A stretch of 64,000 nt of DNA from Saprospiraceae bacterium (GCA_965249765.1 CBDFMR010000005.1:1506782-1570781), one strand, 5' to 3'. Numbered from the stretch's first letter, positions 1,114 to 19,295 are shown. Program-made: numbers and translations. The notes: a model not told the origin generated them from the sequence alone.

Positions 1114-1283
1114 GGTAAGGGGATTTTATTAACAAATGATTACATGTGTCCTGTCAACGTTTTCTGTATAAGAAAAATTGTTTCGTGATTATTTTGTTTT
1201 TTTCTTTTGGTGGAAGCTAACGGTTTGGCGATATCTGGCGGATTTGGCGATAGCCAATCTGACATGATCATCGCATGTTATCC

Positions 1284-1640
1284 TCAGTATTCTTTTACCA
1301 ATACTTCTGTTGAGATATTTAATTTTTTATTTAGTTTTCTGATCATACTTAGAGTTAGTTTTCTCTTCTTATTTAGAATTTCACTTGCTCTACTTTTATG
1401 TCCAATAATTTTAGCCAAATCAGTTTGATTCATTCCCATTTGATCCATTCGAAATTTAATTGCTTCGATTGGGTGAGGTGGATCGATGGGATAATTTTTA
1501 TCTTCATAATCTTCTATAATCAATGCCAATATTTCTAATTCATCTCCTTCTTTAGTGCAAGGTTCGGCGTCAAATATTTTGTCAAGACGTTTAAGAGCTA
1601 ATTCATAGTCTTTTTCTGTTCTTATAGGTTTCATTTTCAT
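1284..1640 (-). CDS. higA: HigA-like antitoxin (XRE-family HTH, type II TA)
   Basis: 118 aa with a C-terminal helix-turn-helix (QTDLAKIIGHKSRASEILNKKRKLTLSMIRKL). It starts 3 nt after the stop of the upstream RelE/HigB-like toxin gene, the typical higB-higA order. Confidence 0.7.
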   Translation of the reverse strand: MKMKPIRTEKDYELALKRLDKIFDAEPCTKEGDELEILALIIEDYEDKNYPIDPPHPIEAIKFRMDQMGMNQTDLAKIIGHKSRASEILNKKRKLTLSMIRKLNKKLNISTEVLVKEY

Positions 1641-1642
1641 TG

Positions 1643-1936
1643 TTATATTTTTGTAGGGTCAATTTTATCATATTCGTCATGGGTTCCAATAAATCTAACA
1701 TATACCATTTGATATTTGTAATTAACCCTGACTATTAATCGATATTGGTTTCCTTTGATGTTGAATATTACCCGATTATTTGATACAAGTCTTGAGTTTG
1801 GGAATTCGTCTTTAACAAAATTTGGATTTGACCAATTACCCTTTATAGTTTCTTGAAACCATGATTTTAATTGTTCTTCTGTATCAGGATGTAACTCCCA
1901 AAATTCTCTTAATATCTTTTTCGCAAGTACTCTCAA
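1643..1936 (-). CDS. higB: HigB-like toxin (RelE/ParE superfamily mRNA interferase)
   Basis: 97 aa; size and sequence pattern (WxxHPDTEEQLKSW, RVIFNIKGNQYRLIVRVNYKYQMVYVRFIGTHDEYDKI) are typical of HigB-family toxins. It sits immediately upstream of the HTH antitoxin. Confidence 0.7.
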   Translation of the reverse strand: MRVLAKKILREFWELHPDTEEQLKSWFQETIKGNWSNPNFVKDEFPNSRLVSNNRVIFNIKGNQYRLIVRVNYKYQMVYVRFIGTHDEYDKIDPTKI

Positions 1937-2074
1937 CTCTTTTACAAGTAAAGATACAAAAAGGTTCCCATTGTGGTATATTTATTTTTTATTGAGGATA
2001 ACGGTCTTGTGTATGAAACGTAGCGTGCAAAAAAACACTACCTTTTTGGAATAGCACAGAGCCGAAATTTTATA

Positions 2075-2143
2075 ATTTGTTTTTAATTTTTCTCTTTTTT
2101 TAAAGCCAAATTGAAAATTTGGCGGTCTTTGAAAATAAATACC
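2075..2143. repeat. about 70-bp intergenic element (copy 1) containing the palindrome gccaaat-N5-atttggc
   Basis: aatttgtttttaatttttctcttttttttaaagccaaattgaaaatttggcggtctttgaaaataaatacc. A near-identical element is present at 18617-18682. Confidence 0.6.
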
Positions 2144-2199
2144 AACTTTCAGTTTAGTAATTATTAGCCATGTTTTATACACCGTGTTAGCAATAGTTT

Positions 2200-2562
2200 T
2201 TAACATCCTGGAAAAGAATCACAGTCCAAATCATCACAATCAGTAAATCCATCTCCATCATTGTCTATTCCATCATTACAGATTTCAGCTGAACAACTTT
2301 GGTCAGAATCACAGTCCAAATCATCACAATCAGTAAATCCATCTCCATCATTGTCTATTCCATCATTACAGATTTCAGCTGAACAACTTTGGTCAGAATC
2401 ACAGTCCAAATCATCGCAATCAGTAAATCCATCTCCATCATTGTCTATTCCATCATTACAGATTTCAGCCTGAGGGTTGTCATCATCACTATTACATGAT
2501 TGATAAATAATTACACTAAAACTAAATAGTGTTAGTAGTAAAATTGGTCTTAAATTTTTCAT
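2200..2562 (-). CDS. small secreted lipoprotein with three perfect 30-aa Asp/Cys-rich (DxDxDG calcium-binding-like) repeats
   Basis: Signal peptide plus lipobox ([23 protein letters not shown]). This is followed by 3x [30 protein letters not shown]. Confidence 0.6.
2216..2470. repeat. 3 x 90-bp perfect tandem DNA repeat (coding)
   Basis: Units begin at 2216, 2306 and 2396. The first two are identical; the third differs by 1 nt and is truncated. Confidence 0.85.
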
Positions 2563-2802
2563 TATTTCTAAGTTTTAATTATTGCTAACGTTTTGGATAT
2601 GTAGAGTAGGTGAGGTACGAACCTATTCTGTCATATCTTTTGTTACCTACTGGCACTTTATCTTTCGTGTTTACAAATGTACTCATTTACTCATTTGTTT
2701 TGGGGTTGGCAGACATACTCTTTGGCAAGTTTGGATTTGTGCGGTGGCTTGTAGCGACTTGCCAATGTGTATGGCTATGCGTTGGCTTTTAGACATATCT
2801 TT

Positions 2803-3837
2803 TTATAAACTTTGAGCAATGCCAAGTAAATAACTTTCATATTCTCTTGGCTTTACTTGTTTTGAAGCGCGATAATTTGGTAATTTAAATTTACTCACAG
2901 CACTTCCGTTTAAAGCAAAAATTTCTTTTCCAATTTTAACCAGACAATATGCCCCATTTTTATAATTGATTACTTCTACATTTTTGACCAAAAAAGGCCA
3001 AGATTCGTGTTCTGTAGAATTAACAATTTTGGATTTAGCAGTAGTCTTAATTTTTAGATATTCTAAATTATGGCTTTCCCAAGGTAAATAATCTTTTTGA
3101 GGGTTTATTTTCGGAATAAGGTATTTTAGCTTCCCTAAATCCTCGTCACGTAATAAAATAAAGCTACCGAAATTTCCGTAATGCTTCCGCCCTTCATCGC
3201 CAAGTCCGTGAGTAAAGAACCGTGAAATAGCTCGTACTCCTTTTTCAATAGTTATGATTGTAGAATTTAATACAAAAGCATCCTCTTCATCATATGTTAA
3301 TTTTGAAACATCAATATCGTTAGAATAGGAATATAATAGCGTTTTAAATTTTTCAAAAGAGTTGTTTTCTTGTCTTTCTTTTTTTACGATTGTGTCGATA
3401 TAATAATAACGTTGAAATATAGAGAAGTCCGTGATTAATTCAAGAAATGTATTAAAACGAGTGTCGTTTTGTAAATAATCTAAATCTTCAATTACCATTG
3501 GTATTTTATTCATTAATTCAACATCTTTTGAATATAAAATGAGATTAGTTATCATTTTCTTAATTCCGTGACCATTATCAAACTGACCAAAATAATTCTT
3601 CTTCCCTTCTATTTGAGGATATTCTCCTGTAAGGTATTTTTCTTTGAGTAGAAGTAATATTTTAACTAACCGTTCAAATCCAGATGATAATAACTGTAGA
3701 GAAATATGATTGCTTGAAACAGCAGAACTTTGATTATCAAGTGCTCTAATACCTTCTTTAATGAAATTGAAAGAAGCTTCTATTTCTTCTCCTATAGCAA
3801 CAATTTTTTCTATTTCTAATGTTTCTTTAGAACTCAT
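2803..3837 (-). CDS. hypothetical protein (344 aa), translationally coupled downstream of the Type IIG R-M enzyme
   Basis: Complete ORF. Its start codon lies 1 nt after the stop of the upstream methylase-endonuclease gene. No recognisable motif. Confidence 0.55.
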   Translation of the reverse strand: MSSKETLEIEKIVAIGEEIEASFNFIKEGIRALDNQSSAVSSNHISLQLLSSGFERLVKILLLLKEKYLTGEYPQIEGKKNYFGQFDNGHGIKKMITNLILYSKDVELMNKIPMVIEDLDYLQNDTRFNTFLELITDFSIFQRYYYIDTIVKKERQENNSFEKFKTLLYSYSNDIDVSKLTYDEEDAFVLNSTIITIEKGVRAISRFFTHGLGDEGRKHYGNFGSFILLRDEDLGKLKYLIPKINPQKDYLPWESHNLEYLKIKTTAKSKIVNSTEHESWPFLVKNVEVINYKNGAYCLVKIGKEIFALNGSAVSKFKLPNYRASKQVKPREYESYLLGIAQSL

Positions 3838-3838
3838 A

Positions 3839-6800
3839 TCAACTCCCCTCTACAATTTTTATCTCGTCTTCCGTCAACCCATACAACGCATACACCATTT
3901 GGTCTATTTGGCGGTCTGTTTTACCAACCTCTGATTTTAGTGCTTGGGCTTCGGCTCTTTTAGTTTCAAAGAGTTGCATCCATTCCATTTCGTCTGATTT
4001 GGTGAGTTTAATGCCCCCTGCTTTTTTAATAGCTTTGTTGAGTTCTTTAATGAAATCTCCAAATTCCAATTCGTACCAGTTTTGGAGTTTTTTAGTGAGC
4101 TTTTCTAATGAATATTTTGAGGTTAAGTATTTCGAGAAAGTACCTTTTGTGCTATTGTATCTACCCAAAAAATCGCTTATTTGGACTGATAGGTTTGACA
4201 GTTCCACTTCCTTTTGTTTATCGGAAATAGCAATTGGAAATTCTTTTACGTAAATATTTATCCATCTCGTAGTTCCCATACCACTTGTATTTGCAATTTG
4301 TTTGAGATAAAACTCAATTAGCTTGGAATTCAAGATTGCAAGTAAGTAATCAAGGGCTATGTTTTCAGGTGGTATCAAAAAGTATGCACTATTCAGCAAA
4401 TATATTTCATCAATACTTTTGCTAAATCTTCCCTTATCTGTAAGTTCAATCCATACAATTTTCTCTTTTTTGAAATCATCAAAAAATGAACAGGCTCTTA
4501 AATTAGTCCAGTGTTGACCTTTGGCCCCACGTTGCTTAAATTTATCGCCAAATGAATCTAAATGATTAAAAATGGCCGGATAATTGGCTGAAACATCAAC
4601 TCCGTTTTTCGTGAGTAGTAAGTAAAGGTTTGGCAACTCATAACTGTATCGATTTATATCACGACCACGCAGTAACGGTTCTATTAAATCTTTACTGTTT
4701 GAATCTTGTCCAATTAGCTCGGTTTTTTTATCTTCCGAAATCACAAATGCTTGATTTGAGCCTGTGGCCAGTCCTAATCGTATTTTTGTGTTTAAATCTT
4801 CAAGAGTAGGGTTAGTACCTTTTATTTTGTTTCTCAATTTTAAGACTTCAGGACGAATCAAATTCCAAGACAAGTAGTCAAAATCTGATTGCTGATATGA
4901 AAATTTATTACTCTCTATAAATGCCCAAAAATCCGTTTGAGTATCGTATATACTGTTAACTATTCTTGCTTTGAAAGTGCTATCTTTTGATTTTCTGAGT
5001 GTGGTGATAACTGAATTTACAATAGCATCAGAAAATATTTGAGTTTCTTCAATATTTATAAGTTCCTTAATTGTACTATGAGCTATAAAATACTCTCTTA
5101 AAGGCTTTCCATAATCAGCTTTTAAAAATGAATTTGACGTAATATAAGATAATGTACCATTCGTTTTTAAGATTCTAATTCCTAATTCATAGAAAAAACA
5201 AAATAAATCTGCAAATGCTTGATACGTTTTGTAGTTCTTTTGAAGATAATTCTTATTGTCAATTCTGTCGTGACTCACATAAGGCGGATTTCCAATCACC
5301 ACATCAAAGCCACCTTTGGCAAATATTTCAGGAAATTCTTTGTCCCAATTAAATGCTTTATCGCCTGCTACTTCTGGGTCGTCTATAAGAGAATTACCAC
5401 ATTTTATATTGCTGTTTAGTGTAGTTAGTTTTCGGCCTTTTTGTGCTGTACGAAGCCAAAGGGATAGCTTCGCTATCTCTACACTTTCTTCGTTTATGTC
5501 AACACCAAAAAGGTTGTTTTCCAAAATTGCGTTTTGCACTTCGGAGAAAATCATTGCATAGCCCAATAGTTTGGCTTTGAGTTCGTCAATGTATCGGTGT
5601 TCTGCTATGAGAAATTCAAGGGCTTGGTTTAAGAATGCACCACTACCACAAGCCGGGTCGCAAATTGTGAGTTGGAGTAACCATTTTCTGTAAGTGTCCA
5701 ACTTGTTTTGCAGGGCTGTAAGAGTGGCTTTCTTTCTGCCTTTTCGTTCTTTTTCGTAGTCGGTTTCCTGTATGTCGAGTTCGGTTTTCTTTTTTTCACA
5801 GAGTTTGCCTACTGTATTGTCAACAATGTATTTGGTAATGTATTTTGGGGTGTAGAATACACCATCTTTTTTACGCTTGGTCTTGCTTTTATCAATTTCC
5901 GTGCCTTCTAATTGGGCTTGGATATTTTCAATTTCGGTTAGCGAGTGTTCAAAAATATGTCCGAGTATGTTTACGCTTACTTCGCTTTCAAAATCGTAAT
6001 GGCTCAGGTTTAGGGTATGCTTGTAGAGAAGTTCATCGTCAATTTTTATGTTGTCGAGTATGTCGTCAGGTGCAAACAGTCCGCCATTGTAAGCAAAAAT
6101 ATCGTGCTTCTGTCCTTTGTGACCTGTATTCATATACCCGAAGTACTTTTTGAATCGGTCGTACAAGGGTTGGTATTCATCATATTTATCTCGTAGGTCA
6201 GTCCATTGGTTTACGATTTCTCGGATTGAGTTTGGCGGTAGTAATAAGCGGTCTTCGGCAAAAAAGATAAACAGAAAACGGTCGAGCAGTTTTTGAGTTT
6301 TCTTGAATAATGTAAGTTTATCGTAATCGGAATTATTCTTTTGTATGCTGTCGAAAATCTCATTTCGGAATTGCGAATAATCTTTGTAGAGTTTCTTGGT
6401 TACGTTTTCCTCTTGGGTAAGCGATTCGTCTTTTATCTGCTTGGGAATGTCTTTGAGCAAGTTTTCGGCAGCAAGGCAGAGATACAGTTTTTCAAAATCG
6501 GTCTTGTTAAGATTAAAGAGATTGAATTCTTCAAAGTCCACCGCATTGTCAATATAGAAGCGTAGTTTTTCAAAGTTGGACGTAATCACATACATACAAT
6601 CGGGTTGATTGTTTTTATATCCAAATGCTTGTGTTTCTACTTTGGCAAGGTCAACGGTGTTGGTTCCTTTCAGTTCGATTACAGCAAGAGCTTTGTCGTC
6701 TTGTAAAATTGCTCCGTCTGTTTTCTTCGCTCCTTTTAGGTTTTTGAGTTCGGTGGTTAGGTTGAAATTGGTTTCGGGATTTAGTATGTAGCCAAATATG

Positions 6801-6979
6801 TTTACGAACAAGTCTCTTAGGAATCCTTCTTGATATTGTTCTTCTTTGGAGTTTCGTATGTTCTCCTGTATGGTTGGATTATGAAAGTGTGCCGTGTATT
6901 TATTCCAAGCCTGTTCTACCTGTCGGCTGTCAAGTCCTTTCAGGTATTTGTTTAAAACAGAATTTTGGAATAGACTCAT
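3839..6979 (-). CDS. Type IIG/IIL restriction-modification enzyme (MmeI-like): N-terminal PD-(D/E)xK nuclease fused to an N6-adenine DNA methyltransferase and a target-recognition domain
   Basis: 1046 aa. N-terminal D-x(n)-E-L-K motif (DGAILQDDKALAVIELKGT). Methylase motif I DPACGSGAFL and motif IV NPPY (VVIGNPPYVSHD). C-terminal 350 aa has no catalytic motifs and is consistent with a TRD. Confidence 0.8.
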   Translation of the reverse strand: MSLFQNSVLNKYLKGLDSRQVEQAWNKYTAHFHNPTIQENIRNSKEEQYQEGFLRDLFVNIFGYILNPETNFNLTTELKNLKGAKKTDGAILQDDKALAVIELKGTNTVDLAKVETQAFGYKNNQPDCMYVITSNFEKLRFYIDNAVDFEEFNLFNLNKTDFEKLYLCLAAENLLKDIPKQIKDESLTQEENVTKKLYKDYSQFRNEIFDSIQKNNSDYDKLTLFKKTQKLLDRFLFIFFAEDRLLLPPNSIREIVNQWTDLRDKYDEYQPLYDRFKKYFGYMNTGHKGQKHDIFAYNGGLFAPDDILDNIKIDDELLYKHTLNLSHYDFESEVSVNILGHIFEHSLTEIENIQAQLEGTEIDKSKTKRKKDGVFYTPKYITKYIVDNTVGKLCEKKKTELDIQETDYEKERKGRKKATLTALQNKLDTYRKWLLQLTICDPACGSGAFLNQALEFLIAEHRYIDELKAKLLGYAMIFSEVQNAILENNLFGVDINEESVEIAKLSLWLRTAQKGRKLTTLNSNIKCGNSLIDDPEVAGDKAFNWDKEFPEIFAKGGFDVVIGNPPYVSHDRIDNKNYLQKNYKTYQAFADLFCFFYELGIRILKTNGTLSYITSNSFLKADYGKPLREYFIAHSTIKELINIEETQIFSDAIVNSVITTLRKSKDSTFKARIVNSIYDTQTDFWAFIESNKFSYQQSDFDYLSWNLIRPEVLKLRNKIKGTNPTLEDLNTKIRLGLATGSNQAFVISEDKKTELIGQDSNSKDLIEPLLRGRDINRYSYELPNLYLLLTKNGVDVSANYPAIFNHLDSFGDKFKQRGAKGQHWTNLRACSFFDDFKKEKIVWIELTDKGRFSKSIDEIYLLNSAYFLIPPENIALDYLLAILNSKLIEFYLKQIANTSGMGTTRWINIYVKEFPIAISDKQKEVELSNLSVQISDFLGRYNSTKGTFSKYLTSKYSLEKLTKKLQNWYELEFGDFIKELNKAIKKAGGIKLTKSDEMEWMQLFETKRAEAQALKSEVGKTDRQIDQMVYALYGLTEDEIKIVEGS

Positions 6980-7031
6980 ACTATCATTCTTGCGTTTTGC
7001 AAATTTACTTTCTTTTTTAGCGTTGGCTAAA

Positions 7032-7096
7032 AATCAGGCTCTTTTGGTTTTTCGTATTGTGCTTTGCGGGTCAGCAAAAACCAAATGTGCCTGATT
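7032..7096. terminator. imperfect 21-bp-stem hairpin between the Type I operon and the Type IIG gene
   Basis: aatcaggctcttttggttttt-(23 nt loop)-aaaaaccaaatgtgcctgatt; 19 of 21 positions are complementary. It lies 270 bp downstream of the DUF45 gene and upstream of the Type IIG start. Confidence 0.3.
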
Positions 7097-7364
7097 GCGG
7101 GAGGGCTATACTTTTCAAGCTTGTAGGTAACGTCCCGTGTATGGTGTCGTAGCATCCCGAAGGGTGCTATGCACTATACACATTGTTGTGCTTTCGTGCT
7201 TTATTTTCTTTTCGTTTTTATTCTCATTTTCTATGTCCACTTGTGCGGTGGGGCATTTTTTTAAATTTCTCTTTTCTTGGGCAGGGACTTGAAAGCTCTT
7301 TTGCAGGTTTTGGTCGAGCGTTGGCATTGTGCGACCTGCAAATGTGCTTGAAAGTGTGCGTTGG

Positions 7365-8081
7365 CTAATACTCCCAATCTGCATGACTAACTGGTAATCT
7401 GTTTAACTCATCTCTCAGTTTCTTCCAATTTGGTAAATAATAGTCCATATGTGCTTTGAATTTGTCATTGTGATTTCGTTCTAATAAATGAACCATTTCA
7501 TGTACAAGAATGAATTCTAAACAGTGAATGGGCTTTTTTGCCAATTCTAAATTCAACCAAACTCTTTTCTTTTCTATGTTGCAAGAACCCCATTTAGTTT
7601 TCATCTGTTTAATGCCACAGAAATTGATTCTTACACCTATTTTCTTTTCCCAATGAGAAATCATTTCAGGTAAAATGCTTTTTAATTCAGCTCTATACCA
7701 TTCATTGAGTAGGTTCTTTTTATATTCAATCGAGACATCAGATTTTACTATTAAATCAAGATATGTTTTGCCTTTTAAATCTACTTTTCCTGCTCCTGTA
7801 GTTTCTTTTATTCTGAGCAAATACCTTCTTCCTTGGAAATAATGGCTTTCTCGTTCTTTGTATTCTTTTGGCGAAGTACGCTCTTGGGCTGCAAATTTGC
7901 GTTGGTGTCTTTTTATCCACCCTAGTTTTGAAATTGCAAAAAGGCGAATAGCGTCACCATGAACATTTAGTGGAACAGCAAGACGAACACGACCTGTTGG
8001 CGGATAAACAGCCAAGTGCATGTTTTTAATATCCTTTCGGATAACATCAACAGTCATATTGCTAATTGTAATTTGCTGCAT
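7365..8081 (-). CDS. DUF45/YgjP-like (M48/SprT-type) zinc metallopeptidase, common accessory gene of Type I R-M operons
   Basis: 238 aa with WGSCN and HExxH (ILVHEMVHLLERNHNDKF). It overlaps the hsdR stop by 1 nt. Confidence 0.8.
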   Translation of the reverse strand: MQQITISNMTVDVIRKDIKNMHLAVYPPTGRVRLAVPLNVHGDAIRLFAISKLGWIKRHQRKFAAQERTSPKEYKERESHYFQGRRYLLRIKETTGAGKVDLKGKTYLDLIVKSDVSIEYKKNLLNEWYRAELKSILPEMISHWEKKIGVRINFCGIKQMKTKWGSCNIEKKRVWLNLELAKKPIHCLEFILVHEMVHLLERNHNDKFKAHMDYYLPNWKKLRDELNRLPVSHADWEY

Positions 8082-11000
8082 TAGTATTCACGTTGATTTT
8101 TAACGATATCAAATATTCTGTCTATCTCGTCTGGTGTTACAATCCCTTTTTCAGCGAGTATCTCTTCAATTTTTAGCCTTACTTCTTTTGTTTTGAATTT
8201 GTTATCGCGCCAAGCATCTTTTTTAGTATATCGTACTGCTTTATCAAGAGAATTTGCTAGAAATTCATCTTTACCAGTATTGTCATAAAGTGCTCTTTTT
8301 GCCTCATTATCAATTGAGCTTGGATAGGTTGTTGAAGAACTTGGTTGTTTAATTTTTCTTGTCAATGCAACAATTTCATCCAAGTACTTTTCGTATTCAT
8401 CCGCTTTTTCTTTCCTCAGTTTTATAAGTTCGTCAAGCAGAATGCTCATCTTCTCATAATACATTGGGTTTGTTGGACTTTCTTCAATTATGACTTTTCG
8501 CAAGTTGTTTTCAATCGTCTCTGACATTGAATCCTTATTCTTTCTGAGTTTTTCAGGAAGGTCATTTATTGCGTCTTTTCCTTTTTCAACAATAAGTTCC
8601 ACCAAGCTTAAATCGTCAAAACTTGAAAGCATTCGGCTTTCTTCTGCTCCAATGTATGAGTCAATTAAATGACGCATTGCTGGTTCATACTGTTTTAGGT
8701 CAATGTAATCACCACTCGCTAACTGAATTTCTTTCCGCAGATTCTCGTAATATTTAACTTCATTTTTGATGCCTGCAATCTCGTTGTTCATGTATCCTGC
8801 TTCTGGCATTTCATCAGCAATATTGGCATAAGCACGAATAACAGAAATCACACATTTGTACAATGCAACCCTTCTGGGTTCGGTATCTTTTAATTCATCT
8901 GAATTTTCGGAATTCCCAACAAAGTAGTGCTGAAACTGAACTTGACCTTTCGGTGGTTCAACAGGTTCAATTAAAGCTCGCATTGTTTCTAAAGCGTCAT
9001 CTAAACGTTGTTTTCCCTTTTTCAAGCGATCTTCTAATAAACCTGCAACATCTTCTTTTTCAAAATTGTCAAAAGCACCTGAGGTGTAATCCTTAATGGA
9101 CTTGTCAAGGCTTTTAAATAGGTCTTTGTAGTCTATGACATAACCATAGTCTTTGTCATCCCCATCTAAGCGATTCACTCGGCAAATGGCTTGAAATAAA
9201 CCATGGTCTTTCATGTTTTTGTCTATGTACAAGTAAGTTGCTGATGGAGCGTCAAATCCCGTTAAAAGTTTATCTACTACAATAAGGAGCTTCATTTGAG
9301 CAGGTTCATCAACAAACTTCTTCTTGGCTTCAATTTCAAAGGCTTCAACATCTTTTCCATTGAGCATCTTTTGATAAATCTCGTATTTAATGAGTTTTTC
9401 TGTTAATCCTTCACCTGTCTCTTCACCTTTAATATCTGCATGAGAAGGAGCAAAGGAGGTGACGATAGCACAGTTCTTTAGTCCTGCATTTTGAAACAGT
9501 TCGTAATATCGGCAAGCGTTGTACACACTTTCGGAAACCAACATGGCATTTCCTCTACCATTTTGCAAACGCTCTTTAGTTTCCATGTCGAGCATTACAT
9601 CTGCAACAATTTTCTCTAATCGAGATTTGGAACTGAAGACCTTTTTTAAAGTACCCCATTTTTGTTTCAGTTCTGTTTTGGCGAAGTCTGTTAGCCCTTT
9701 TGTTTTAGCATCAAACCATTGGTCTATTTTATCAAAACTTGATATTTTCTGCTCAATGTCTCGTGCTTCATAACGCAAGTCAAGAACAACTTTATCAGCT
9801 ACTGCTTCATCAAATTTGTAAGTGTGAATGTATTTACCGAATACCTCTAGACTCGTTTGCTTGTCTTTTTTGAGAAGAGGAGTTCCTGTAAAACCAATAA
9901 ATAATGCATCAGGTAAAATGGTTGTCATGCTCTCATGAAGTTTACCACTTTGGGTTCGGTGACACTCGTCTACGAAAACAAAAACATCACCTTTGGCTTT
10001 AAAGTCAGTAGGCAAGCTTGCCTTTAAATCTTTGATATAATCATCAACATCCTTCTCATCAATTTCTTCTTTTCCGCCAAATTTGTGAACCAAAGAACAA
10101 AGTAACCAAGGTGAATTAGAATTGAGTTTATCGATTAAATCCTTACCGCTTGTTGTACGATAAATGTGTTCATCTACGCCTTTGTAAACTTTTTCAATTT
10201 GTTCATCCAGTTCCGTTCTATCTGTTATTATTAGAACTCGGGCATTTTCAACATTTTCTCTAATCCATTTGGTAAGCCAAACCATGGTTAAGGACTTCCC
10301 ACTTCCTTGCGTATGCCAAATGATTCCACCTTCTCTTTTTCGAACGTGTTCTTGGGCTGCTTTAATACCGAAATATTGGTTTGGTCTTGTTAGTTTTTTG
10401 ATTCCTCTATCAAATACTATGTAGTCATGGAGCAACTCAATGAAACGCTCTTTATTCAGCATTTCTATAATGTTCTTGTCCAAACGGTGCTCAACCGTTG
10501 CAGCTAAATGTCGAATAGGTTTTGTGAGTTGAAGTAAATACTTGTCTTTAGCGTTTACTTCTTCATTTACCTCTTTCCAACTTAGATAATATCTTTCTTT
10601 GGTTTCTATTGCTCCATAAGCCAATCCCTCATTATCACTTCCAGCCATTACAAATTGTAAGGTTGAAAAGAAAGGCTTTATAAAAAGGTGTTTTTGATTG
10701 TCTAAATTCTGACGAATTCCTTCTGAAATTGAAACGGTACTCCGTTTTAATTCAATAACGCCCAATGCAATTCCGTTTACATACAGAACAATATCTGGAC
10801 GCTTTTTATGAATTCCTTTTATTGTGACTTCTTCTGCAATTGCGAAATCATTTTTAAGCGGATGCTTCCAATCAATTAGTTGAATGGTTTTTTTATTCTT
10901 CCCAATTTCAGGTTGAACATTTACGCCATAACGTAGAAGCGTATAAAACTCTTTGTTTACATCATATAAACTTTTGCTTTGGTCGTTTGCAATCTTATCC

Positions 11001-11572
11001 AGTTCATACAAGGTTTTTGTAATGAGGTTGGAGTCGTATTTCTTTTGTAGAAATTCCGTTAATATCTCAGTTTCAATATTGCTGTTGTCTTCACGTTCTT
11101 CCCAATTTCCTAAGTAACGGTAGTTCAATTTGTTTTGAAATAATTCAACAACTCGGTCTTGGGTAACTCGTTCTAATTGACCAACCTCAGAACTTGCAGG
11201 GTTTTCTAGTTTATTCACAATATTTCTTTTTATGCCTGAGGCTAATGGTTTGTCAGGTGAGAGGAGTATTAACCCTGGATCAGGAAAAATGTCATCACTT
11301 ACAACGCCTGTGTAATCTTCTACTTCAAGTTCATTTTGATTGACAAAGCTTCCTTTTAAGAAACGAGATATTTTGTCATTAAAGACGGTTCTCAAATCAA
11401 GTTCGCCTGATAAGAATTTACCTGAATTTTCAGCATCTACTTTATGCCCAATGTATTCCTCGGTTTCCTCATCTAATAAGACAAAGAGGTAGTTAAACTG
11501 CTTCTCGTCTTCGCAGATAAGTAGCGTAGGAATCTCGTAATAGTACAGCTGTTTAACCACTTTTAAATTCAT
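8081..11572 (-). CDS. hsdR: Type I restriction endonuclease R subunit (HsdR)
   Basis: SF2 helicase motifs: Walker A WHTQGSGKSLTM, DEAH-box FVFVDECHRTQ, motif III TGTP. Start chosen at MNLKVV so that the ATG overlaps the stop of the upstream small ORF; the longest ORF would extend to 11629. Confidence 0.85.
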   Translation of the reverse strand: MNLKVVKQLYYYEIPTLLICEDEKQFNYLFVLLDEETEEYIGHKVDAENSGKFLSGELDLRTVFNDKISRFLKGSFVNQNELEVEDYTGVVSDDIFPDPGLILLSPDKPLASGIKRNIVNKLENPASSEVGQLERVTQDRVVELFQNKLNYRYLGNWEEREDNSNIETEILTEFLQKKYDSNLITKTLYELDKIANDQSKSLYDVNKEFYTLLRYGVNVQPEIGKNKKTIQLIDWKHPLKNDFAIAEEVTIKGIHKKRPDIVLYVNGIALGVIELKRSTVSISEGIRQNLDNQKHLFIKPFFSTLQFVMAGSDNEGLAYGAIETKERYYLSWKEVNEEVNAKDKYLLQLTKPIRHLAATVEHRLDKNIIEMLNKERFIELLHDYIVFDRGIKKLTRPNQYFGIKAAQEHVRKREGGIIWHTQGSGKSLTMVWLTKWIRENVENARVLIITDRTELDEQIEKVYKGVDEHIYRTTSGKDLIDKLNSNSPWLLCSLVHKFGGKEEIDEKDVDDYIKDLKASLPTDFKAKGDVFVFVDECHRTQSGKLHESMTTILPDALFIGFTGTPLLKKDKQTSLEVFGKYIHTYKFDEAVADKVVLDLRYEARDIEQKISSFDKIDQWFDAKTKGLTDFAKTELKQKWGTLKKVFSSKSRLEKIVADVMLDMETKERLQNGRGNAMLVSESVYNACRYYELFQNAGLKNCAIVTSFAPSHADIKGEETGEGLTEKLIKYEIYQKMLNGKDVEAFEIEAKKKFVDEPAQMKLLIVVDKLLTGFDAPSATYLYIDKNMKDHGLFQAICRVNRLDGDDKDYGYVIDYKDLFKSLDKSIKDYTSGAFDNFEKEDVAGLLEDRLKKGKQRLDDALETMRALIEPVEPPKGQVQFQHYFVGNSENSDELKDTEPRRVALYKCVISVIRAYANIADEMPEAGYMNNEIAGIKNEVKYYENLRKEIQLASGDYIDLKQYEPAMRHLIDSYIGAEESRMLSSFDDLSLVELIVEKGKDAINDLPEKLRKNKDSMSETIENNLRKVIIEESPTNPMYYEKMSILLDELIKLRKEKADEYEKYLDEIVALTRKIKQPSSSTTYPSSIDNEAKRALYDNTGKDEFLANSLDKAVRYTKKDAWRDNKFKTKEVRLKIEEILAEKGIVTPDEIDRIFDIVKNQREY

Positions 11573-11976
11573 ACTTCTACCTTTTGAATGGTTACAGAGC
11601 TTATGTCGAATGAATGAGAACGCCACCATGAATAATGACCATCTGAAAAAGTTTGCTTAATCATTCCGTCACCGTCATACAACACTATTTTTGCAAGCAA
11701 TTTTTCTTTCTTTTTGCCCGCAGGTGTTTTGAAAAATGCATTTAAAAGTCCTTCGGCACTGTCAAATGTGGATACCGCTCTGGCACAACATTCATCAGGA
11801 TATTCTTTAGTCGGGAATTTACTTCTGTGAGACATCAAACATTCTGAGGAAGCAGGATTGCATTTTACTATGCGATATAATTCCATAGAACCATCAGGAA
11901 TATTTGCATCTTCATGCGGGCAATTACAATCCGCAATGTCCAAATCTTCAAAATATCTGATTTCGCTTTTATCCAT
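11569..11976 (-). CDS. Cys-rich hypothetical protein (135 aa) inserted between hsdS and hsdR
   Basis: Starts 2 nt after the hsdS stop; its stop overlaps the proposed hsdR start (ATGA). Cys clusters CNCPHE, KCNPASSEC, ECCARAV. Confidence 0.45.
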   Translation of the reverse strand: MDKSEIRYFEDLDIADCNCPHEDANIPDGSMELYRIVKCNPASSECLMSHRSKFPTKEYPDECCARAVSTFDSAEGLLNAFFKTPAGKKKEKLLAKIVLYDGDGMIKQTFSDGHYSWWRSHSFDISSVTIQKVEV

Positions 11977-11977
11977 T

Positions 11978-13201
11978 TTAAACCAATCTCTTTTTACCGT
12001 TTAATAAATCTTGCATCATACCCCTTTTGAACATTTTTTGCTTTGTGAGTTTAGATTCTAATTGTTCTATTTCATTATCCATATCAAAAAGAATGGTTGC
12101 TATTTTTTTTTGCTCGTCAATTGTTTTGGGAGTTAGAAATTTAAAATTGACAAAGTCTTTTTGATATAGGTGATTTATAGTTGAACCAGCACTTAATTGG
12201 GTTAAAAATGTCAGAAAAACATCAGATAATAGAAGGTAATAGAAGAATTCTGGGTGAAATGATTTGTTAATAGGACGAATAACAAAAACCCCACTGTTAA
12301 GTGTTGCGGGCTTAGGCACATCTTTTATTAGTGCTACTTTACCAATGGTTCCATCTTTTGTGACAAGAACATCATGTGGTTTGACTTGAATAAATTTGTC
12401 TTGGCGATATCTGTCATATTCTACATAATGACATTTATCCCAATCGATAAAGCCATTCTTAAACTCTGTGCCAGTAATAAGAAAATATTCTCCAGTTTTT
12501 TTGTACTCAGCAGTTGTTAAACCTTGCCAGCCAATCCGTGCTTTAAGAGTAGCTGTTTTACCTAATTCGTTTTCGACCCAATCTTTTTTGGGTTTCATTA
12601 ATTTTTGGAGGATACCTTGTTTTAAATTTCGTTTCTTAGCAAGAAGTTTTTCAAGACAAGCAATCAATTGATCTGTATCACTGAGAGCAATAGAGATTTT
12701 TGTTTGCTCTGATTTCTTAAGAGGTAAAGCGACAGGACAATCTAGAATTTCTTGTCGCTTTATATTGGTTTGACCAGTACCACTATCAAATGCTAAATAG
12801 TATTTGTTTCTATTTAATTTATAGAACAGATACATATTGTCTGTATCATCATTGGCAGTTATTCCACCAATTCGTTGATTCAACGTATATCTGTCATCCT
12901 TATCAATGAGAAAGCATTTTGCTAATGCTTTTCCTTTTGGAATGTCACTCATTACAATTGTGATATCTCCTTTCGTTAATGGAAAAATGTTCTTCTTAGA
13001 AAATTTCTTTACTCCTCCTTCAGTTGAGATAAATTTTGAGTTCACTACGATGTATTCTCCATGCTCATCAATAAACTGTTCATGAGCTTTCCCATTTTCA
13101 AAATGGGCCACTTCATGCAAAGGTTTTACCACCCAATCGTTTGGAATGATTCCTGCGTCCGTTTGCTGAAAACCTTCTGCTATTTTCAATTCTTCTACCA
13201 T
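11978..13201 (-). CDS. hsdS: Type I R-M specificity subunit (HsdS), two target-recognition domains
   Basis: 407 aa. Bipartite TRD architecture with conserved spacer helices (LIACLEKLLAKKRNLKQGILQKLM ... NEIEQLESKLTKQKMFKRGMMQDLL). Overlaps hsdM by 7 nt. Confidence 0.85.
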   Translation of the reverse strand: MVEELKIAEGFQQTDAGIIPNDWVVKPLHEVAHFENGKAHEQFIDEHGEYIVVNSKFISTEGGVKKFSKKNIFPLTKGDITIVMSDIPKGKALAKCFLIDKDDRYTLNQRIGGITANDDTDNMYLFYKLNRNKYYLAFDSGTGQTNIKRQEILDCPVALPLKKSEQTKISIALSDTDQLIACLEKLLAKKRNLKQGILQKLMKPKKDWVENELGKTATLKARIGWQGLTTAEYKKTGEYFLITGTEFKNGFIDWDKCHYVEYDRYRQDKFIQVKPHDVLVTKDGTIGKVALIKDVPKPATLNSGVFVIRPINKSFHPEFFYYLLLSDVFLTFLTQLSAGSTINHLYQKDFVNFKFLTPKTIDEQKKIATILFDMDNEIEQLESKLTKQKMFKRGMMQDLLNGKKRLV

Positions 13202-15639
13202 GTGTAGTTCATTTGTTTTAGGTGGTCTTCAACTTTAGCAGTTAAGTCAGCTATGTCATTGGTAAGTTTAGGCATTGGTGTTTCGTATCTTTCACCAAGC
13301 TCTTTTATCCGTTCGGTTAATCGGTGACTTATGGCATCCATTTCTGATTTGACAAGTAGTTCCATGGTCACCATCCATTTCTTGTCAACCGTAAGTGTTT
13401 TGATTTCATCAATGCTCAAAACAGGATATTTCTTTATGACTTTACCTTCTAGTTCGGAAAGAGCTTTTTTTATACTTGCTTTTAGCTTGGTTTCTTTCGC
13501 CATTAGCTTTTTGTATTTGTCTAGCATATCCCATTCTTCGGCATTGTCTGCATCTTTCTTTCCAAGTTCCTTGATGCGTGCATCCAAACTCTTTTTAGAA
13601 ATCTTTTGCTTGTCGTCCATGGGTTCTGTCAACAAACCATCTTCACCACCATTTTCATCTCTCAATTCATCCATTTCGGAAACGGTTGTGTCTAAATCAG
13701 ATTGAAGTTTTTCAATGGCACCTTGCTCAGTTGCAAAATATTCTTGAATGATTATAGATGGCGGAATTAACCTGCCTTCTAGTCCGTCTATTCCATCAAC
13801 TGCTTTTTCAATTTCTTTACCTGCTTTCTTTGCTTTTTTCATGATTCTTGAAACCACATTTCCAGCTTTCCAGCCATCAGCTGATAACTCATACAAATCA
13901 TCTTGCATGATTTCAGACCAATAGTCCATCATGTGTTGATAAACTGCATATTTATCTACCAAGTCCTTTCCATGGTAGGTTTTAAGAAGGTCTTCTGATA
14001 TTTTATGAATGACTTCTTTAGGGTGACAGGCTTCTTCTAAACCTTTGAGGTAAGTTGTGTTTTTGACACACCATTCGTTGAATACCTTTTCCATTTTTTC
14101 TGAGTAGATTACGAATTCAGGGTGTTCAAAAATGGTAGACTTAATGCTGTCTTTTTCTACGTCTAAATCCCAATAGTTAGCACGAGAGTTTGGCTTGTAC
14201 ATATCGGTTTTTAGTGTTGGGTAAACTTTCCAGTAACTATTTAAAGCTTCAATATCTCTGTTAGGAATACCACCTCTTAAATGTGCATCAATGTCTTGAA
14301 TGTCCTCTTCTTCCTGACTGTCAATATATCTTGGAATATTTAAGTTGTAGTCATTCTTCGGGCCTGAGATTTCAGACAAAGGCACCATTCGGCTGTATTT
14401 CAGAATTTCAAGTTGTTTGTTAAAGACATCTACTATTTGGTGAAGGTCTTGCGAACGCAATCTGTTTTTGTTTCCGTCCTTCATAAATCCTTTACCTGCA
14501 TCAATCATAAAAATGCCTTTACGCTGAGCGGCATCTTCTTTGTCTATCACCAAAATACAAGCGGCTATACCAGTTCCATAAAACAAGTTGGCAGGTAGTC
14601 CGATTATTCCTTTGATGTATCCTCTTTTAACAATGCTTTTCCGAATCTCTGCTTCCGCATTTCCTCTGAACAAAACGCCTAGAGGTAGAATGATTGCTCC
14701 TTTTCCTTTGCTTTTCAGTGATTTGATTAAATGGAGCAGGAATGCATAATCTCCGTTTTTCTTTGGTGGAATGTCGTAATTCTCAAAACGCTTATATAGG
14801 TCATTAACCGCATCAAGTCCGTTTGTCCAAGTCTTGTTGCTAAAAGGGGGATTGGCTACTGCATAATCAAAAGTTTTTAAATCTCCAGTTTTATCATCTT
14901 TAAAAAGTGGATCAGCAATTGTATTTCCTTGGACAATTTCAGATGCAGGATTTCCATGCAGCCACATATTCATAACAGCCAAGGCTCGTGTAGCATTGTC
15001 ATTTTCTTGTCCGTAAATCGAAATGCCGTGAGGTGATTCATCTGCTGCTTTTAGCAGCAACGAACCTGAACCGCAAGTTGGATCGTAAAGACTTTCAGAT
15101 TGGCTTTTTGATTTTTGAATTCCAATCACTTTTGCCATTATTCGAGAAACTTCAGCAGGTGTATAGAATTGTCCTTTACTCTTTCCGCTTTCCGTTGCGA
15201 AGTGTCGCATCAAATACTCATAGGCGTCACCAAGGATGTCGTCATTCTCTGCGCGGTTTCCGCTAAAGTCAAGAGCTTCATTTTCGAAAATCTCGATTAG
15301 ATTACTTAATCTGTCAACTTTGTCTTTTCCCTTTCCAAGTTTCTCGCTATCGTCAAAGTCAGCAACGGTTATAATTCCATTCAGGTCATTGGCTTTTGCC
15401 AATGCTCCAATAATTACATTGATTTTTTCACCTATGTCTGACTTTCCTTTAAGTTTTATCATGTCCTTAAAGCTTCCACCTTCAGGTATGTCAACCAATG
15501 CACCGCCTTTGTCAGAGACATATTTCATAAAGAGTAAAACCAATACATAATCTTTGTACTGGCTTGCATCCATGCTTCCCCTTAATTCATCACAGCTTTT
15601 CCAAAGTGAGCTGTATAATTCTGATTTCTTTATTGCCAT
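13195..15639 (-). CDS. hsdM: Type I R-M methyltransferase subunit (HsdM) with an unusually long (about 300 aa) charged coiled-coil C-terminal extension
   Basis: 814 aa. N-terminal HsdM_N pattern (ELYSSLWKSCDELRG), motif I DPTCGSGSLL, motif IV NPPF (AVANPPFSNKTW). The last ~300 aa are K/E-rich with no methylase motifs. Confidence 0.85.
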   Translation of the reverse strand: MAIKKSELYSSLWKSCDELRGSMDASQYKDYVLVLLFMKYVSDKGGALVDIPEGGSFKDMIKLKGKSDIGEKINVIIGALAKANDLNGIITVADFDDSEKLGKGKDKVDRLSNLIEIFENEALDFSGNRAENDDILGDAYEYLMRHFATESGKSKGQFYTPAEVSRIMAKVIGIQKSKSQSESLYDPTCGSGSLLLKAADESPHGISIYGQENDNATRALAVMNMWLHGNPASEIVQGNTIADPLFKDDKTGDLKTFDYAVANPPFSNKTWTNGLDAVNDLYKRFENYDIPPKKNGDYAFLLHLIKSLKSKGKGAIILPLGVLFRGNAEAEIRKSIVKRGYIKGIIGLPANLFYGTGIAACILVIDKEDAAQRKGIFMIDAGKGFMKDGNKNRLRSQDLHQIVDVFNKQLEILKYSRMVPLSEISGPKNDYNLNIPRYIDSQEEEDIQDIDAHLRGGIPNRDIEALNSYWKVYPTLKTDMYKPNSRANYWDLDVEKDSIKSTIFEHPEFVIYSEKMEKVFNEWCVKNTTYLKGLEEACHPKEVIHKISEDLLKTYHGKDLVDKYAVYQHMMDYWSEIMQDDLYELSADGWKAGNVVSRIMKKAKKAGKEIEKAVDGIDGLEGRLIPPSIIIQEYFATEQGAIEKLQSDLDTTVSEMDELRDENGGEDGLLTEPMDDKQKISKKSLDARIKELGKKDADNAEEWDMLDKYKKLMAKETKLKASIKKALSELEGKVIKKYPVLSIDEIKTLTVDKKWMVTMELLVKSEMDAISHRLTERIKELGERYETPMPKLTNDIADLTAKVEDHLKQMNYTW

Positions 15640-15848
15640 TTAATTTCCTTTATCTTCTTTGTTAGAAATAATCAAGTCTTTGATATCGATATCTAATATC
15701 TCTGCAATTTCCATTAGCACTTCCAATCTTGGTTGTTGTCTGTTTTGCACATAGGAGTTCACCATATTGTAGCTCTTTCCAAGTTTCTCAGCCAGCCAAG
15801 TCTGTTTAATCCCTTTGTCTGCAAGTACTTCCTTAATACGATTCATTG
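15640..15848 (-). CDS. small XRE-family HTH transcriptional regulator (candidate controller of the Type I operon)
   Basis: Start taken at the internal Met: MNRIKEVLADKGIKQTWLAEKLGKSYNMVNSYVQNRQQPRLEVLMEIAEILDIDIKDLI. Its stop abuts the hsdM start codon. The upstream part of ORF 15640..16098 is low-complexity (PTFGTFAKPHKPTHNP) and probably not coding. Confidence 0.55.
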
Positions 15849-16203
15849 CTGTCAAATTATTCGGTTCTAAATTACAATTATATCTCAAATAATAAGATAT
15901 AAACCGATAGTTATTATGGGTAGAGCGTGGGAGATTTGGCTCTTTTGTAAAGCTTGGGTTGTGGGTTGGCTTGTGCGGCTTTGCAAATGTGCCAAATGTG
16001 GGTTGGCAGAGAAATTTAAAAAAATGCGAAGCGGGGGCTTTCAGATTATTTGGTCTGTAAGTTTGATTTAGTCTTATATCAATTCGGTTAGCATTCAAAG
16101 TTCAGTTTTCTCTTTTTTGCATGAAGCACAACGGTTGATGATATCTCGTCGTCTCTCGACGAAGGAGAGATATGCGATGATATCTATTGTTAGTCGCTTT
16201 TTT

Positions 16204-17253
16204 TCATATTCTGTACACAAATTCCAGAAAATCACCTAATTCAGAATTGTGAATTGATTTGTTAGTTCTCCAATGTAAATGTCTAACGATTATTCCTAAT
16301 GCATCCGCTATATCAGTTTTATGTTTACTTAAATCAATATCGAATTCTTCTTTAATAGTTTGATTTATTGATTGATTTTTATTCCCTATTTTGTTTACAA
16401 ATTCGCTTGTATTGCAATCTATTATTTTTAAAGTATTTAGGACTCCATAAAATAATTTGATTGGTATTGATGTTTCGAAATCGTGTTTAAATTGAAATGT
16501 GTGGTCTTCTGAGATTAGTCCATTTTTTATATGGTTTTGAAAGAAGTTTATATCGTTTCCGTCCTTATCTCCTTGTATAAATATTTCATATCCAACTTCA
16601 CGATTTTTCTCAATTAGCATTTTTATTTTCTTTTCGCTTTTATTGTTCTTTCCATCATAAGATTGCACGATAAACTGTTTAGCTGAAAAATCACCATTAG
16701 ATATTAATCTGTTTATGAAAATTTCTTCAGTTTTTCCTTCTACCATCAATATACCTTTAGTAGCACCAAATTCATTTAATTCTCTGAAATTTTTACCTAA
16801 TTCGTCTAAATAGTGTCGTATATAAAGAACGTGACCATAGTTTTGAGGTGAATGCTCGCCATACCAATCAAGCATATCTTTATCGAGAAACATACCTGTT
16901 TCAAGTTCGGATTGATATATGAATTTTTGAAAATAGTAAAGTCCGTTAAAGTATTTTTGGAGTTGGTCTTTCTTATATGTAGTTAAGAGATGAAAAGTTT
17001 GGTCGATAAAATTATTTATGACTTTAACTACGACTCCACATTGTATGTCTTTGAATTTATGTTTGACATATTCATGCTGAATGGTAAACTTACAATAATC
17101 AGATCTTCCACATTTATGGCACTCATAGTAAGGCACCCATCTATCTACTAATTCATTTGATAAACCCCTTTCTTCGAATTCTCCCATCAATTCCAATGGA
17201 TAGAGTCCATATGGATTTATTGTCGATATTTCTTTTTCAGTAAAGTCTATCAT
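16204..17253 (-). CDS. zinc-ribbon + TOPRIM-domain protein (OLD-family/AriB(DUF4435)-like nuclease core lacking an ATPase)
   Basis: 349 aa. N-terminal CxxC-x7-C (YECHKCGRSDYC). TOPRIM signature glutamate in ILMVEGKTEEIF and a DxD motif in IFIQGDKDGNDINFF about 57 aa downstream. Confidence 0.55.
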   Translation of the reverse strand: MIDFTEKEISTINPYGLYPLELMGEFEERGLSNELVDRWVPYYECHKCGRSDYCKFTIQHEYVKHKFKDIQCGVVVKVINNFIDQTFHLLTTYKKDQLQKYFNGLYYFQKFIYQSELETGMFLDKDMLDWYGEHSPQNYGHVLYIRHYLDELGKNFRELNEFGATKGILMVEGKTEEIFINRLISNGDFSAKQFIVQSYDGKNNKSEKKIKMLIEKNREVGYEIFIQGDKDGNDINFFQNHIKNGLISEDHTFQFKHDFETSIPIKLFYGVLNTLKIIDCNTSEFVNKIGNKNQSINQTIKEEFDIDLSKHKTDIADALGIIVRHLHWRTNKSIHNSELGDFLEFVYRI

Positions 17254-17274
17254 TTTCTATTTTTAAATTGCGAC

Positions 17275-17922: not shown

Positions 17923-18000
17923 GTCAATGATACCCGTTCGTACTGACGGTAGGAAGTATGACGTGGTATCTAATGTTATCATCCTTTTTAAATAGATATT

Positions 18001-18511: not shown

Positions 18512-18616
18512 ATGTGGTTTATTTAGTTTGTTTTAATTGATGATAACGTTTAGTATATGGCTAGTAGGGCAGTAGAAAGCGATAAACTTTCAATCTTACA
18601 CTTAGCCAAATATAAA

Positions 18617-18682: not shown

Positions 18683-18710
18683 ACTGAACTTTCGTAAACC
18701 TCCGAACGCC

Positions 18711-19286: not shown

Positions 19287-19295
19287 GCTTGCAGG

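Follow-up and report, generated by a model that had tools for sequence, protein, structure and literature searches.

Integrons are defined by their integrase, IntI, and are considered rare in Bacteroidota; reviews count the phylum among integron hosts (PMC9668308 and another), and IntegronFinder 2.0 reported one complete integron in Bacteroidetes (PMC9024848). The IntI clade is defined by an additional domain around patch III (Messier & Roy 2001, as cited in PMC9668308). Here we analyse 64,000 nucleotides from a Saprospiraceae bacterium (GCA_965249765.1, CBDFMR010000005.1:1506782-1570781; the window, meaning this whole stretch), where a recombinase of a very large family annotated as XerD or tyrosine recombinase adjoins an array with the integron signature. 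Two large defence cassettes of the window's array are bracketed by copies of a conserved element of ~105 nt, which we call E. Taken as a whole, our explanation, which we hold with rather more belief than doubt, is that E is a conserved DNA hairpin bracketing defence cassettes in an integron-like array, with an accessory role in recombination as the preferred function. In the literature that we searched, neither E nor a Bacteroidota integron of Xer type is described.

A conserved hairpin element in four copies

The initial annotation of this DNA had singled out three segments, described as GC-rich and as lying upstream of genes, that share short motifs. The motifs are indeed there: the 11-mers TTGTGCGGTGG (at 2737 and 7241), GGGTTGGCAGA (2703 and 16000) and TGCAAATGTGC (7337 and 15982), and the word GCGTTGGC (2779, 7318 and 7358), for which we find an additional site at 7020. 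Single 11-mers are only weakly above chance, with 0.4-1.5 matches expected at ≤1 mismatch, but chance does not account for them as parts of one element (covariance model: 86-96 bits, E-value ~1e-19 to 1e-21). The three segments, together with a fourth at 7007-7116, are copies of E. Of the shared words, GGGTTGGCAGA corresponds to a flanking box, on the 3' side in E1 and on the 5' side in E3, TGCAAATGTGC to the junction of stem, bubble and stem, and GCGTTGGC to the box itself; TTGTGCGGTGG supplies a box in the loop of E1 and stands alone beyond E2, at 7241-7251. E was first recognised by aligning the window with loci that encode relatives of the nearby recombinase (designated L013, L026 and so on below); searches of the loci with single motifs gave few matches but led to L013, L070 and L038. 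In these loci the same words lie downstream of the integrase homologue, directly after it in L013, L070 and L026, and deeper into the array in L038.

All four copies are on the minus strand (86-96 bits), and a covariance-model scan of the whole window found no fifth E and no copy outside the array. Since all genes from 1 to 21544 are also on the minus strand, the copies at 2690-2796 and 7266-7375 follow operons and do not precede them, so that an upstream position holds for the segment at 15912-16017 and fails for these two, which lie at operon 3' ends; the added copy at 7007-7116 also precedes an operon. The segments are locally GC-rich, if moderately so (0.42-0.49 for the model matches against a window mean of 0.387); neighbouring 200-nt windows have values of 0.26-0.33.

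Read along the gene strand, E consists of a box GCCAAC(G/C)CACA, a 4-5 bp stem, ACA, and a 9-10 bp stem arm starting TT(T/G)G, followed by a CA-rich loop of ~25 nt with GCCAAC/CGCACAA boxes, the complementary arm ending CAAA, AGA and the closing stem; at the 3' end come a T-run in some copies and then a second GCCAAC(G)C box. In the DNA fold, ACA opposite AGA forms an A·A mismatch, a C-G pair and another A·A mismatch. For each of the four window copies, and on either strand, this hairpin is the DNA fold of minimum energy; TTGGC-N20-GCCAA, pointed out earlier in the third segment, joined the wrong partners, the true stems being those of the E hairpin. The copies sit tightly against their genes: the E1 box begins 17 nt past the stop codon of the 344-aa gene, and the 5' GCCAAC box of E2 (7365-7360) overlaps the TAG stop of the YgjP-like gene. 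After the E2b hairpin come a T-run and a GCCAACGC box, and E3 is, by eye, ~85% identical to the Aequorivita copy at L038 13558-13663. Hairpins of the cassette junctions are separate from E, at distances of 7-190 nt. An "inside-out" E, missed by the covariance model, lies right after the integrase in L026 (11250-11340), with the 3'-type arm (AAAATTAAA AGA GCTG) first and the 5'-type arm (CAGC ACA TTTAATTTT) second, the short stem being inner and the long stem outer.

Covariation points to a DNA hairpin

At least 190 E copies were recovered from Bacteroidota genomes and metagenomes, the window included. Six genome loci (Vicingaceae, Negadavirga, Flavobacteriales, Aequorivita, Saprospiraceae and Cryomorphaceae) contribute 10 further copies, each of which lies downstream of the integrase gene and on its strand. 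The metagenomes were scanned with a pattern for the 5' half of E only, which matched at least 120 contigs; among the matches listed, 120 of 120 contigs contain a full E with the complementary 3' arm, many with a second copy (at least 176 copies). Because the pattern covered only the 5' half, the complementary 3' arm is an independent confirmation of the element. Across 119 sequences, 93% of cells are paired, both sides have changed in 11 of 13 pairs and 333 cells are compensatory, a result as high as this occurring in 0 of 500 shuffles and no slid register coming close. The stem sequences thus differ between copies yet stay complementary. ACA is present in 116 of 119 sequences, a number largely fixed by the search pattern, and AGA, which is absent from the pattern, in 115. 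We rejected a reading of E as a small open reading frame (ORF): loop lengths vary, indels do not come in threes, and the variation follows pairing, not codons.

Pair types bear on the level at which the hairpin is selected. Over 12 pairs, leaving aside the loop-closing pair (1428 cells), 1374 cells are Watson-Crick, 11 are G·T/T·G, 11 are A·C/C·A and 32 are other combinations. Wobble pairs are no commoner than A·C mismatches, which argues for pairing at the DNA level and against RNA selection; judging from these alignments, E probably acts as DNA, not as RNA. The alternative would be a structured RNA element in 5' or 3' untranslated regions that affects the stability, processing or translation of defence operons, as the strong conservation of the hairpin and its co-orientation with the cargo in most modules might lead one to expect. 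We consider this highly improbable, given the equal counts of G·U and A·C (11 each), the lack of any Rfam family over E at E-value ≤5 in 1-21000 (the sole gathering-score match being tRNA-Met), the equally good folding of both strands, and locus L203, where E keeps the orientation of the cassette around antisense cargo.

Paired copies bracket interchangeable cargo

E copies occur as same-strand pairs around gene modules, just inside both ends of large defence cassettes. In the window, E3 and E2 enclose a helix-turn-helix (HTH) gene, hsdM, hsdS, a 135-aa ORF, hsdR and a gene for a YgjP-like protein, that is, a Type I restriction-modification (RM) operon, while E2b and E1 enclose a Type IIG enzyme and a 344-aa protein. 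The pairs of other loci hold different sets: HTH, an Eco57I-type IIG enzyme, a methylase, GmrSD and a RelA/SpoT-like protein in L038; HTH, Dcm, HATPase, Z1, DUF4420 and AIPR in L070; a Type I RM system with a different gene order and an AAA_13 protein in L034; and a 616-aa protein with a helicase in L014. All 38 metagenome loci with several copies carry them on one strand. The 58 metagenome intervals between two E copies are full of ORFs, the last stop codon abutting the 3' E in ~30, and a domain census of 95 module ORFs returned mostly Type I, IIG and III RM systems, helicases, and Wadjet-like, HerA, GmrSD and AbiEii-like proteins. An ORF test gives E and the cargo genes the same orientation in 52 of 60 modules, a figure that rises to ~56 of 60 if four modules holding one long ORF each are included. 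In L203 the orientation of the cassette is kept by E even though the methylase gene and the one next to it run antisense. Two copies (L201/L202) lie on a 65.6-kb contig classed as viral (IMG/VR IMGVR_UViG_3300028602_002388), which is an array wrongly classified or else an element similar to a phage or plasmid that carries such cassettes.

Comparison with L188 separates the constant from the variable parts of the Type I cassette: only 16037-15670 (90%, 368 nt) and 7367-7175 (89%, 194 nt) are common to both, the former comprising an inverted repeat, E3, the promoter region and most of the HTH gene, the latter E2, the inverted repeat and a spacer up to R'', the cassette-end word described below. 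The 8.3 kb between these conserved ends are unrelated except for a 27% methylase match. The same cassette ends, ~90% identical, surround unrelated cargo in other organisms. E and the sequence next to it, which includes an A-rich spacer, an AT-rich inverted repeat and in some cassettes a small HTH gene, form a conserved "chassis" around interchangeable RM or defence cargo. The idea of a shared promoter cassette spread by recombination, offered earlier as a second choice, was therefore close to the mark as regards conserved end-modules of mobile cassettes, but the modules are not simply promoters because half of the E copies are at operon 3' ends. Reading of the alignments distinguishes two types of chassis, one with short spacers, an alpha-subtype 5' E and a beta-subtype 3' E (window Type IIG, L070, L034, L203), the other with long spacers and the AT-rich inverted repeat (window Type I, L014, L038, L188). 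An A-rich spacer (ACGAAAAGAAAATAAAGCACG...) at 7175-7240, between the 3' E and R'', is kept in L034 and L070.

The inverted repeat, which had escaped the initial annotation, is a perfect 20-nt repeat (GCATTTTTTTAAATTTCTCT) flanking E2 and E3; L014 has the same repeat at the same positions, and L038 a related AT-rich repeat there. When the spacers were inspected by eye for long-range pairing, only this repeat and the R''/R' words paired. A perfect repeat just outside E2 and E3, and subterminal hairpins in direct orientation at both ends, could also mark the ends of an independent hairpin-ended transposable element carrying defence genes, similar to an IS200/IS605 passenger element or a miniature inverted-repeat transposable element (MITE). 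This reading seems to us barely credible: there is no transposase, the 5' and 3' copies are different conserved subtypes, the modules are framed by matching G↓TT and R'' words of the cassette system (the arrow marking the junction), the copies keep to one strand per locus (the integrase's strand in the genome loci), and the inverted repeat is absent from short-spacer cassettes.

The small HTH gene belongs to the conserved 5' end of the Type I cassette, and the initial annotation had seen in its product, counted there as 69 aa of the XRE family, a possible common regulator comparable to the controller (C) proteins of RM systems. E would then hold operators through which this protein co-regulates the RM operons of the island. 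The window protein is 84% identical to the HTH protein that follows E in L070 and 75% in L034, with 96% over 49 aa in L188, and proteins 75-96% identical follow a 5' E in L070, L034, L133, L188 and others; moreover, the invariant words of E (GCACATTTG, CAAAAGAGC and the GCCAAC boxes) could be read by some protein. We nevertheless find this role improbable. A small first ORF (64-111 aa) is present in only ~9 of 58 modules, and HTH_3 in only 4 of 95 module ORFs; half of the copies are 3' of operons, the stems are variable but complementary, and the boxes of E are direct repeats and not palindromes. A more ordinary operator candidate, the palindrome TATATCT-N9-AGATATA, lies outside E at ~15873-15895, by the HTH start.

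An integron-like array with a Xer-like recombinase

Each intergenic region of the array contains an imperfect hairpin framed by ...AAC (R'') and GTT... (R'). The first 9-10 nt of each cassette, from GTT, are complementary to the R'' of its own 3' hairpin and not to that of its neighbour, so that seven R''/R' pairs tile the array end to end from 19299 to 1223; the cassettes as a whole tile from 20384 to 1223, and every one of them begins after G↓TT. Searching the window simply for AAC...GTT hairpins gave 82 mostly spurious matches, and the complementary-word tiling test was used instead. At the Type I cassette, for example, R'' AAGCACAAC (7193-7185) is complementary to the cassette start GTTGTGCTT (16132-16124), and the R' of the same hairpin, GTTACCTAC (7131-7123), starts the Type IIG cassette. 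That word is in turn complementary to R'' GTAGGTAAC (2650-2642) of the next hairpin, the R' of which is GTTAGCAATA (2589-2580); upstream, R'' GCGACTAAC of the hairpin at 16124-16197 is complementary to GTTAGTCGC at 17278-17270, and its R', GTTGTGCTT, starts the Type I cassette. The signature extends to the other loci: of 51 E modules, 29 have a GTT word of at least 9 nt that is complementary to an AAC word across the module, compared with 3% when module pairs are mismatched. In the DNA downstream of 19 integrase homologues we counted 96 chain links, compared with 3 in upstream controls of equal length; as a rule, the first GTT word is ~70-100 nt past the integrase gene.

The small cassettes have some peculiarities of their own. 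A HigB/HigA toxin-antitoxin pair (1284-1936, minus strand) forms its own cassette, as in large chromosomal integrons, and the product of 2200-2562 (minus strand) is an acidic double-disulfide repeat protein encoded with three 90-nt tandem repeats (2202-2471) of 90-100% identity. Two identical ORF-less copies of ~650 nt, at 17276-17923 and 19297-19943, are framed like a cassette (GTTATCC... to ...GAGACG↓TT); they have no Rfam match and no relative in any locus compared, and could represent a non-coding cassette or else an element that has inserted where cassettes join. The long attC-like sites at 1993-2195 and 18539-18737, each of ~200 nt, have a common inner motif, CCGCCAAAT...ATTTGGC then AAATTAAAAACAAA, which suggests a putative subfamily of recombination sites with a conserved centre.

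The array begins next to the gene of a 370-aa Xer-like tyrosine recombinase, with a SAM_4-type N-terminal domain and ~95 extra N-terminal residues. It lacks the IntI-specific insertion: aligned to VchIntIA (2a3v) over 98-261/15-178 and 287-359/247-319, it has 25 residues where IntI has 68, ~43 fewer exactly at that insertion, and it aligns unbroken to Xer-type recombinases. The families that match it best are the TIGR02249 integron integrase (199 bits, cut-off 265, in two stretches) and archaeal XerA (195 bits). More than 7,000 homologues at E-value ≤1e-30 are annotated as XerD or tyrosine recombinase, never as integron integrase. Ten nt past the integrase stop codon, an attI-like site starts with a hairpin, CAACAACTCC (20422-20413) and GGAGGTTGTTG (20406-20396), followed by ATATTCGAAT and then G↓TT (20385, 20384-20383). 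Comparison with a second strain, L203, places the break here: the integrase region is 99.2% identical and the partner-gene region 99.8%, the array is completely different, and identity ends just after ...CGAATGTT at 20385-20383, the sequences being unrelated beyond. The site thus shows the G↓TT break of an attI, in an atypical position, and the break is consistent with a putative exchange at G↓TT. The L203 array also tiles and holds an E-bracketed Type II RM system. Many contigs break right after the integrase, which fits repeats in arrays.

Divergent from the recombinase gene lies the gene of a 117-aa protein with CxxC motifs (zinc-ribbon-like by eye), a candidate accessory factor. It has the same position in the distant Bacteroidota loci L038 (48% identical) and L070 (42%), and it has no Pfam or NCBIfam match. 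At 8822-9845 of L203, against 21545-21701 of the window, an insertion sequence (HTH_33 and DDE_3 genes) separates the recombinase and 117-aa genes, and beyond the 117-aa gene (window >22134) the two strains also differ. Variable DNA may thus lie to either side of the platform, or the platform as such could be mobile.

Possible functions of E

How might E serve the cassettes? The role that we prefer, quite possible if tentative, is that of an accessory structure of the recombination site for oversized cassettes. Excision of a cassette as a circle would place the attC-like hairpin between the 3' E and the 5' E, and in cassettes with long spacers a stem enclosing this hairpin could be closed by the 20-nt repeat. 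E might be bound by the recombinase, by its N-terminal extension or by the 117-aa partner, through the mismatched hairpin and the repeated boxes, and would help the excision and insertion of unusually large cassettes (2-10 kb). We favour this role because of that circle order and because the boxes of E (GCCAAC, CGCACAA) resemble the R'' words of the array (GTTGCCAAC, ...GCACAAC).

As the main alternative, E could be a transcriptional insulator, the 5' copy stopping read-through ahead of the cassette's own promoter and the 3' copy ending the operon, so that toxic cargo would be self-controlled and transcription kept off the recombination hairpin. In several alpha-subtype 5' copies (E2b, L013, L070a, L034a, L014a, L068) a T-run comes straight after the hairpin, as in a terminator, whereas 3' copies and the other 5' subtype have none, and E1, E2 and E3 lack it. 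The Bacteroidetes -7 promoter consensus is TAnnTTTG, and the word TAAATTTG, 28 nt ahead of the Type IIG ATG and after E2b, matches it; among the 5' E copies, a downstream TAnnTTTG fits E2b and L038a only. That 3' copies begin at the stop codon and that the cargo consists of self-contained RM and defence operons also agree with insulation. A terminator stem, however, has no need of invariant A·A mismatches or of three conserved GCCAAC boxes, the rarity of wobble pairs speaks against a transcribed hairpin here too, and the alpha copy of L203 adjoins the 3' end of an antisense methylase gene. On balance we judge insulation unlikely.

Several observations weigh against an accessory role in recombination. 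Small cassettes of the same array have no E and still show the cassette-end signature, so that cassette structure does not depend on E. Across loci, the DNA immediately following the integrase gene shows no enrichment of GCCAA words; the words enriched there are ATATAC/CGTATA and GTTAG. The terminator-like T-run that ends alpha-subtype 5' copies and the good -7 box after E2b both fit a role in expression. E orientation is split from gene orientation in one clear case only, L203, and the scarcity of wobble pairs, which argues against RNA-level selection, is no proof of a role as single-stranded DNA.

Features of the window

Coordinates are collected in Table 1. Away from the array, the region 47000-54100 contains several identical duplicated blocks (among them 47456-47755 and 49207-49506; 48084-48383 and 50970-51269; 47004-47151 and 53871-54018), which are probably repeated insertion-sequence-like copies, and a perfect 24-nt palindrome at 50874-50921. 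Long in-frame tandem repeats, with units of ~231-237 nt and 306 nt, at 37700-42000 and 60500-64000 are typical of very large repetitive surface proteins.

Table 1. Elements, cassettes and platform genes of the window
Feature	Position	Strand	Details
E1, 3' bracket of Type IIG cassette	2690..2796	-	95.7 bits; 5' half: box GCCAAC 2786-2781, stem1 ATAC 2772-2769, ACA 2768-2766, stem2 TTGGCAAGT 2765-2757; 3' half: loop with CCACCGCACAA, stem2' 2730-2722, AGA 2721-2719, stem1' GTAT 2718-2715, box GCCAAC 2710-2705
E2b, 5' bracket of Type IIG cassette, missed by the initial annotation	7007..7116	-	86.1 bits; fold z-score -5.4
E2, 3' bracket of Type I RM cassette	7266..7375	-	87.6 bits
E3, 5' bracket of Type I RM cassette, upstream of HTH-hsdM operon	15912..16017	-	91.2 bits
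Left arm of perfect 20-nt inverted repeat	16008..16027		GCATTTTTTTAAATTTCTCT; abuts outer side of E3
Right arm of 20-nt repeat (7253-7272) and solitary CCACCGCACAA box (7241-7251)	7241..7272		outside E2
Cargo of cassette 1: hsdM, hsdS, 135-aa ORF, hsdR, YgjP-like peptidase	7365..15639	-	
Cargo of cassette 2: Type IIG Eco57I/MmeI-like enzyme and 344-aa protein	2803..6979	-	
68-aa XRE HTH	15640..15846	-	in conserved 5' end of Type I cassette
Whole cassette array	1215..20004	-	complementary-word tiling
First ORF-less cassette	20384 to ~19943	-	
FMN reductase cassette	GTT 19299 / R'' 18737	-	
95-aa ORF and glutaredoxin-like ORF cassette	GTT 18547 / R'' 17983	-	
349-aa protein cassette	GTT 17278 / R'' 16197	-	
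Type I RM cassette	GTT 16132 / R'' 7193	-	
Type IIG cassette	GTT 7131 / R'' 2650	-	
Repeat lipoprotein cassette	GTT 2589 / R'' 2195	-	
HigBA cassette	GTT 2002 / R'' 1286	-	
Further cassette	from 1223	-	runs off window
attC-like hairpin ending 349-aa cassette	16124..16197	-	
attC-like hairpin ending Type I cassette	7123..7193	-	
attC-like hairpin ending Type IIG cassette	2580..2650	-	
Xer-like tyrosine recombinase, 370 aa	20432..21544	-	platform recombinase
attI-like site	20383..20422	-	
117-aa protein, CxxC motifs	21702..22055	+	divergent from recombinase gene

Comparison with known systems

We speculate that the locus represents a Bacteroidota-wide integron class, with a Xer-type recombinase that lacks the IntI insertion (>7,000 homologues), a small zinc-ribbon-like partner, a hairpin attI 3' of the recombinase gene, and E as an accessory DNA hairpin through which complete defence operons of 2-10 kb would be mobilised, in a reusable chassis with swapped cargo. 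If true, structure-specific cassette capture would not be tied to the IntI insertion, and a large unannotated reservoir of mobile defence systems could be searched for with the E model and the tiling signature. E could explain the handling of cassettes far over the usual size limit, or the insulation of toxic cargo, and a conserved chassis with exchangeable cargo could be of practical help in the search for new defence systems.

E itself is neither an attC site nor a C-box and matches no Rfam family; with a T-run in alpha-subtype 5' copies only, it is probably no typical terminator either, and, to judge from the window and the related loci, probably no dispersed repeat. Like attC sites, it is a DNA hairpin with conserved unpaired positions, free but complementary stems and boxes that end in AAC. 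In contrast to them, its boxes are direct repeats (GCCAAC...GCCAAC) with no inverted AAC/GTT, it stands at both cassette ends, and the junctions lie in separate hairpins, on which grounds we set aside the reading of E as an attC site. C-protein operators share with E that a small HTH gene starts some of the bracketed RM operons. However, C-boxes are short palindromes just upstream of the C gene, whereas E is a covarying hairpin of ~105 nt that also follows operons and is present in cassettes lacking an HTH gene; its 3' copies, the few modules with a small first ORF (~9 of 58) and the variable stems led us to reject a C-box operator as well. The subterminal hairpins of IS200/IS605 elements, and the repetitive extragenic palindromes and mosaic elements known as REP and BIME, likewise form imperfect hairpins in which mismatches are conserved, one at each end of a segment and directly oriented; here, by contrast, there is no HUH enzyme, E is confined to the arrays of the window and related loci, and its 5' and 3' subtypes are distinct.

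The resemblance to integrons is a matter of overall organisation. In both, a tyrosine recombinase stands beside co-oriented cassettes, each of which has at its end an imperfect hairpin between ...AAC and GTT..., and the start of each cassette after G↓TT is complementary to its own R''. Both include toxin-antitoxin, ORF-less and defence-gene cassettes, and content differs fully between strains with a 99% identical platform. The present system differs in that its recombinase is without the IntI-specific insertion and is about equally close to Xer families, and in that the array and the attI-like site, which has a hairpin of its own, are 3' of the recombinase gene and co-oriented with it. Its cassettes, moreover, reach 9 kb with whole RM operons, and the E brackets are without an integron counterpart. 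As the array agrees with integrons in the other sequence properties tested but its recombinase lacks the IntI insertion, we call it integron-like and not an integron.

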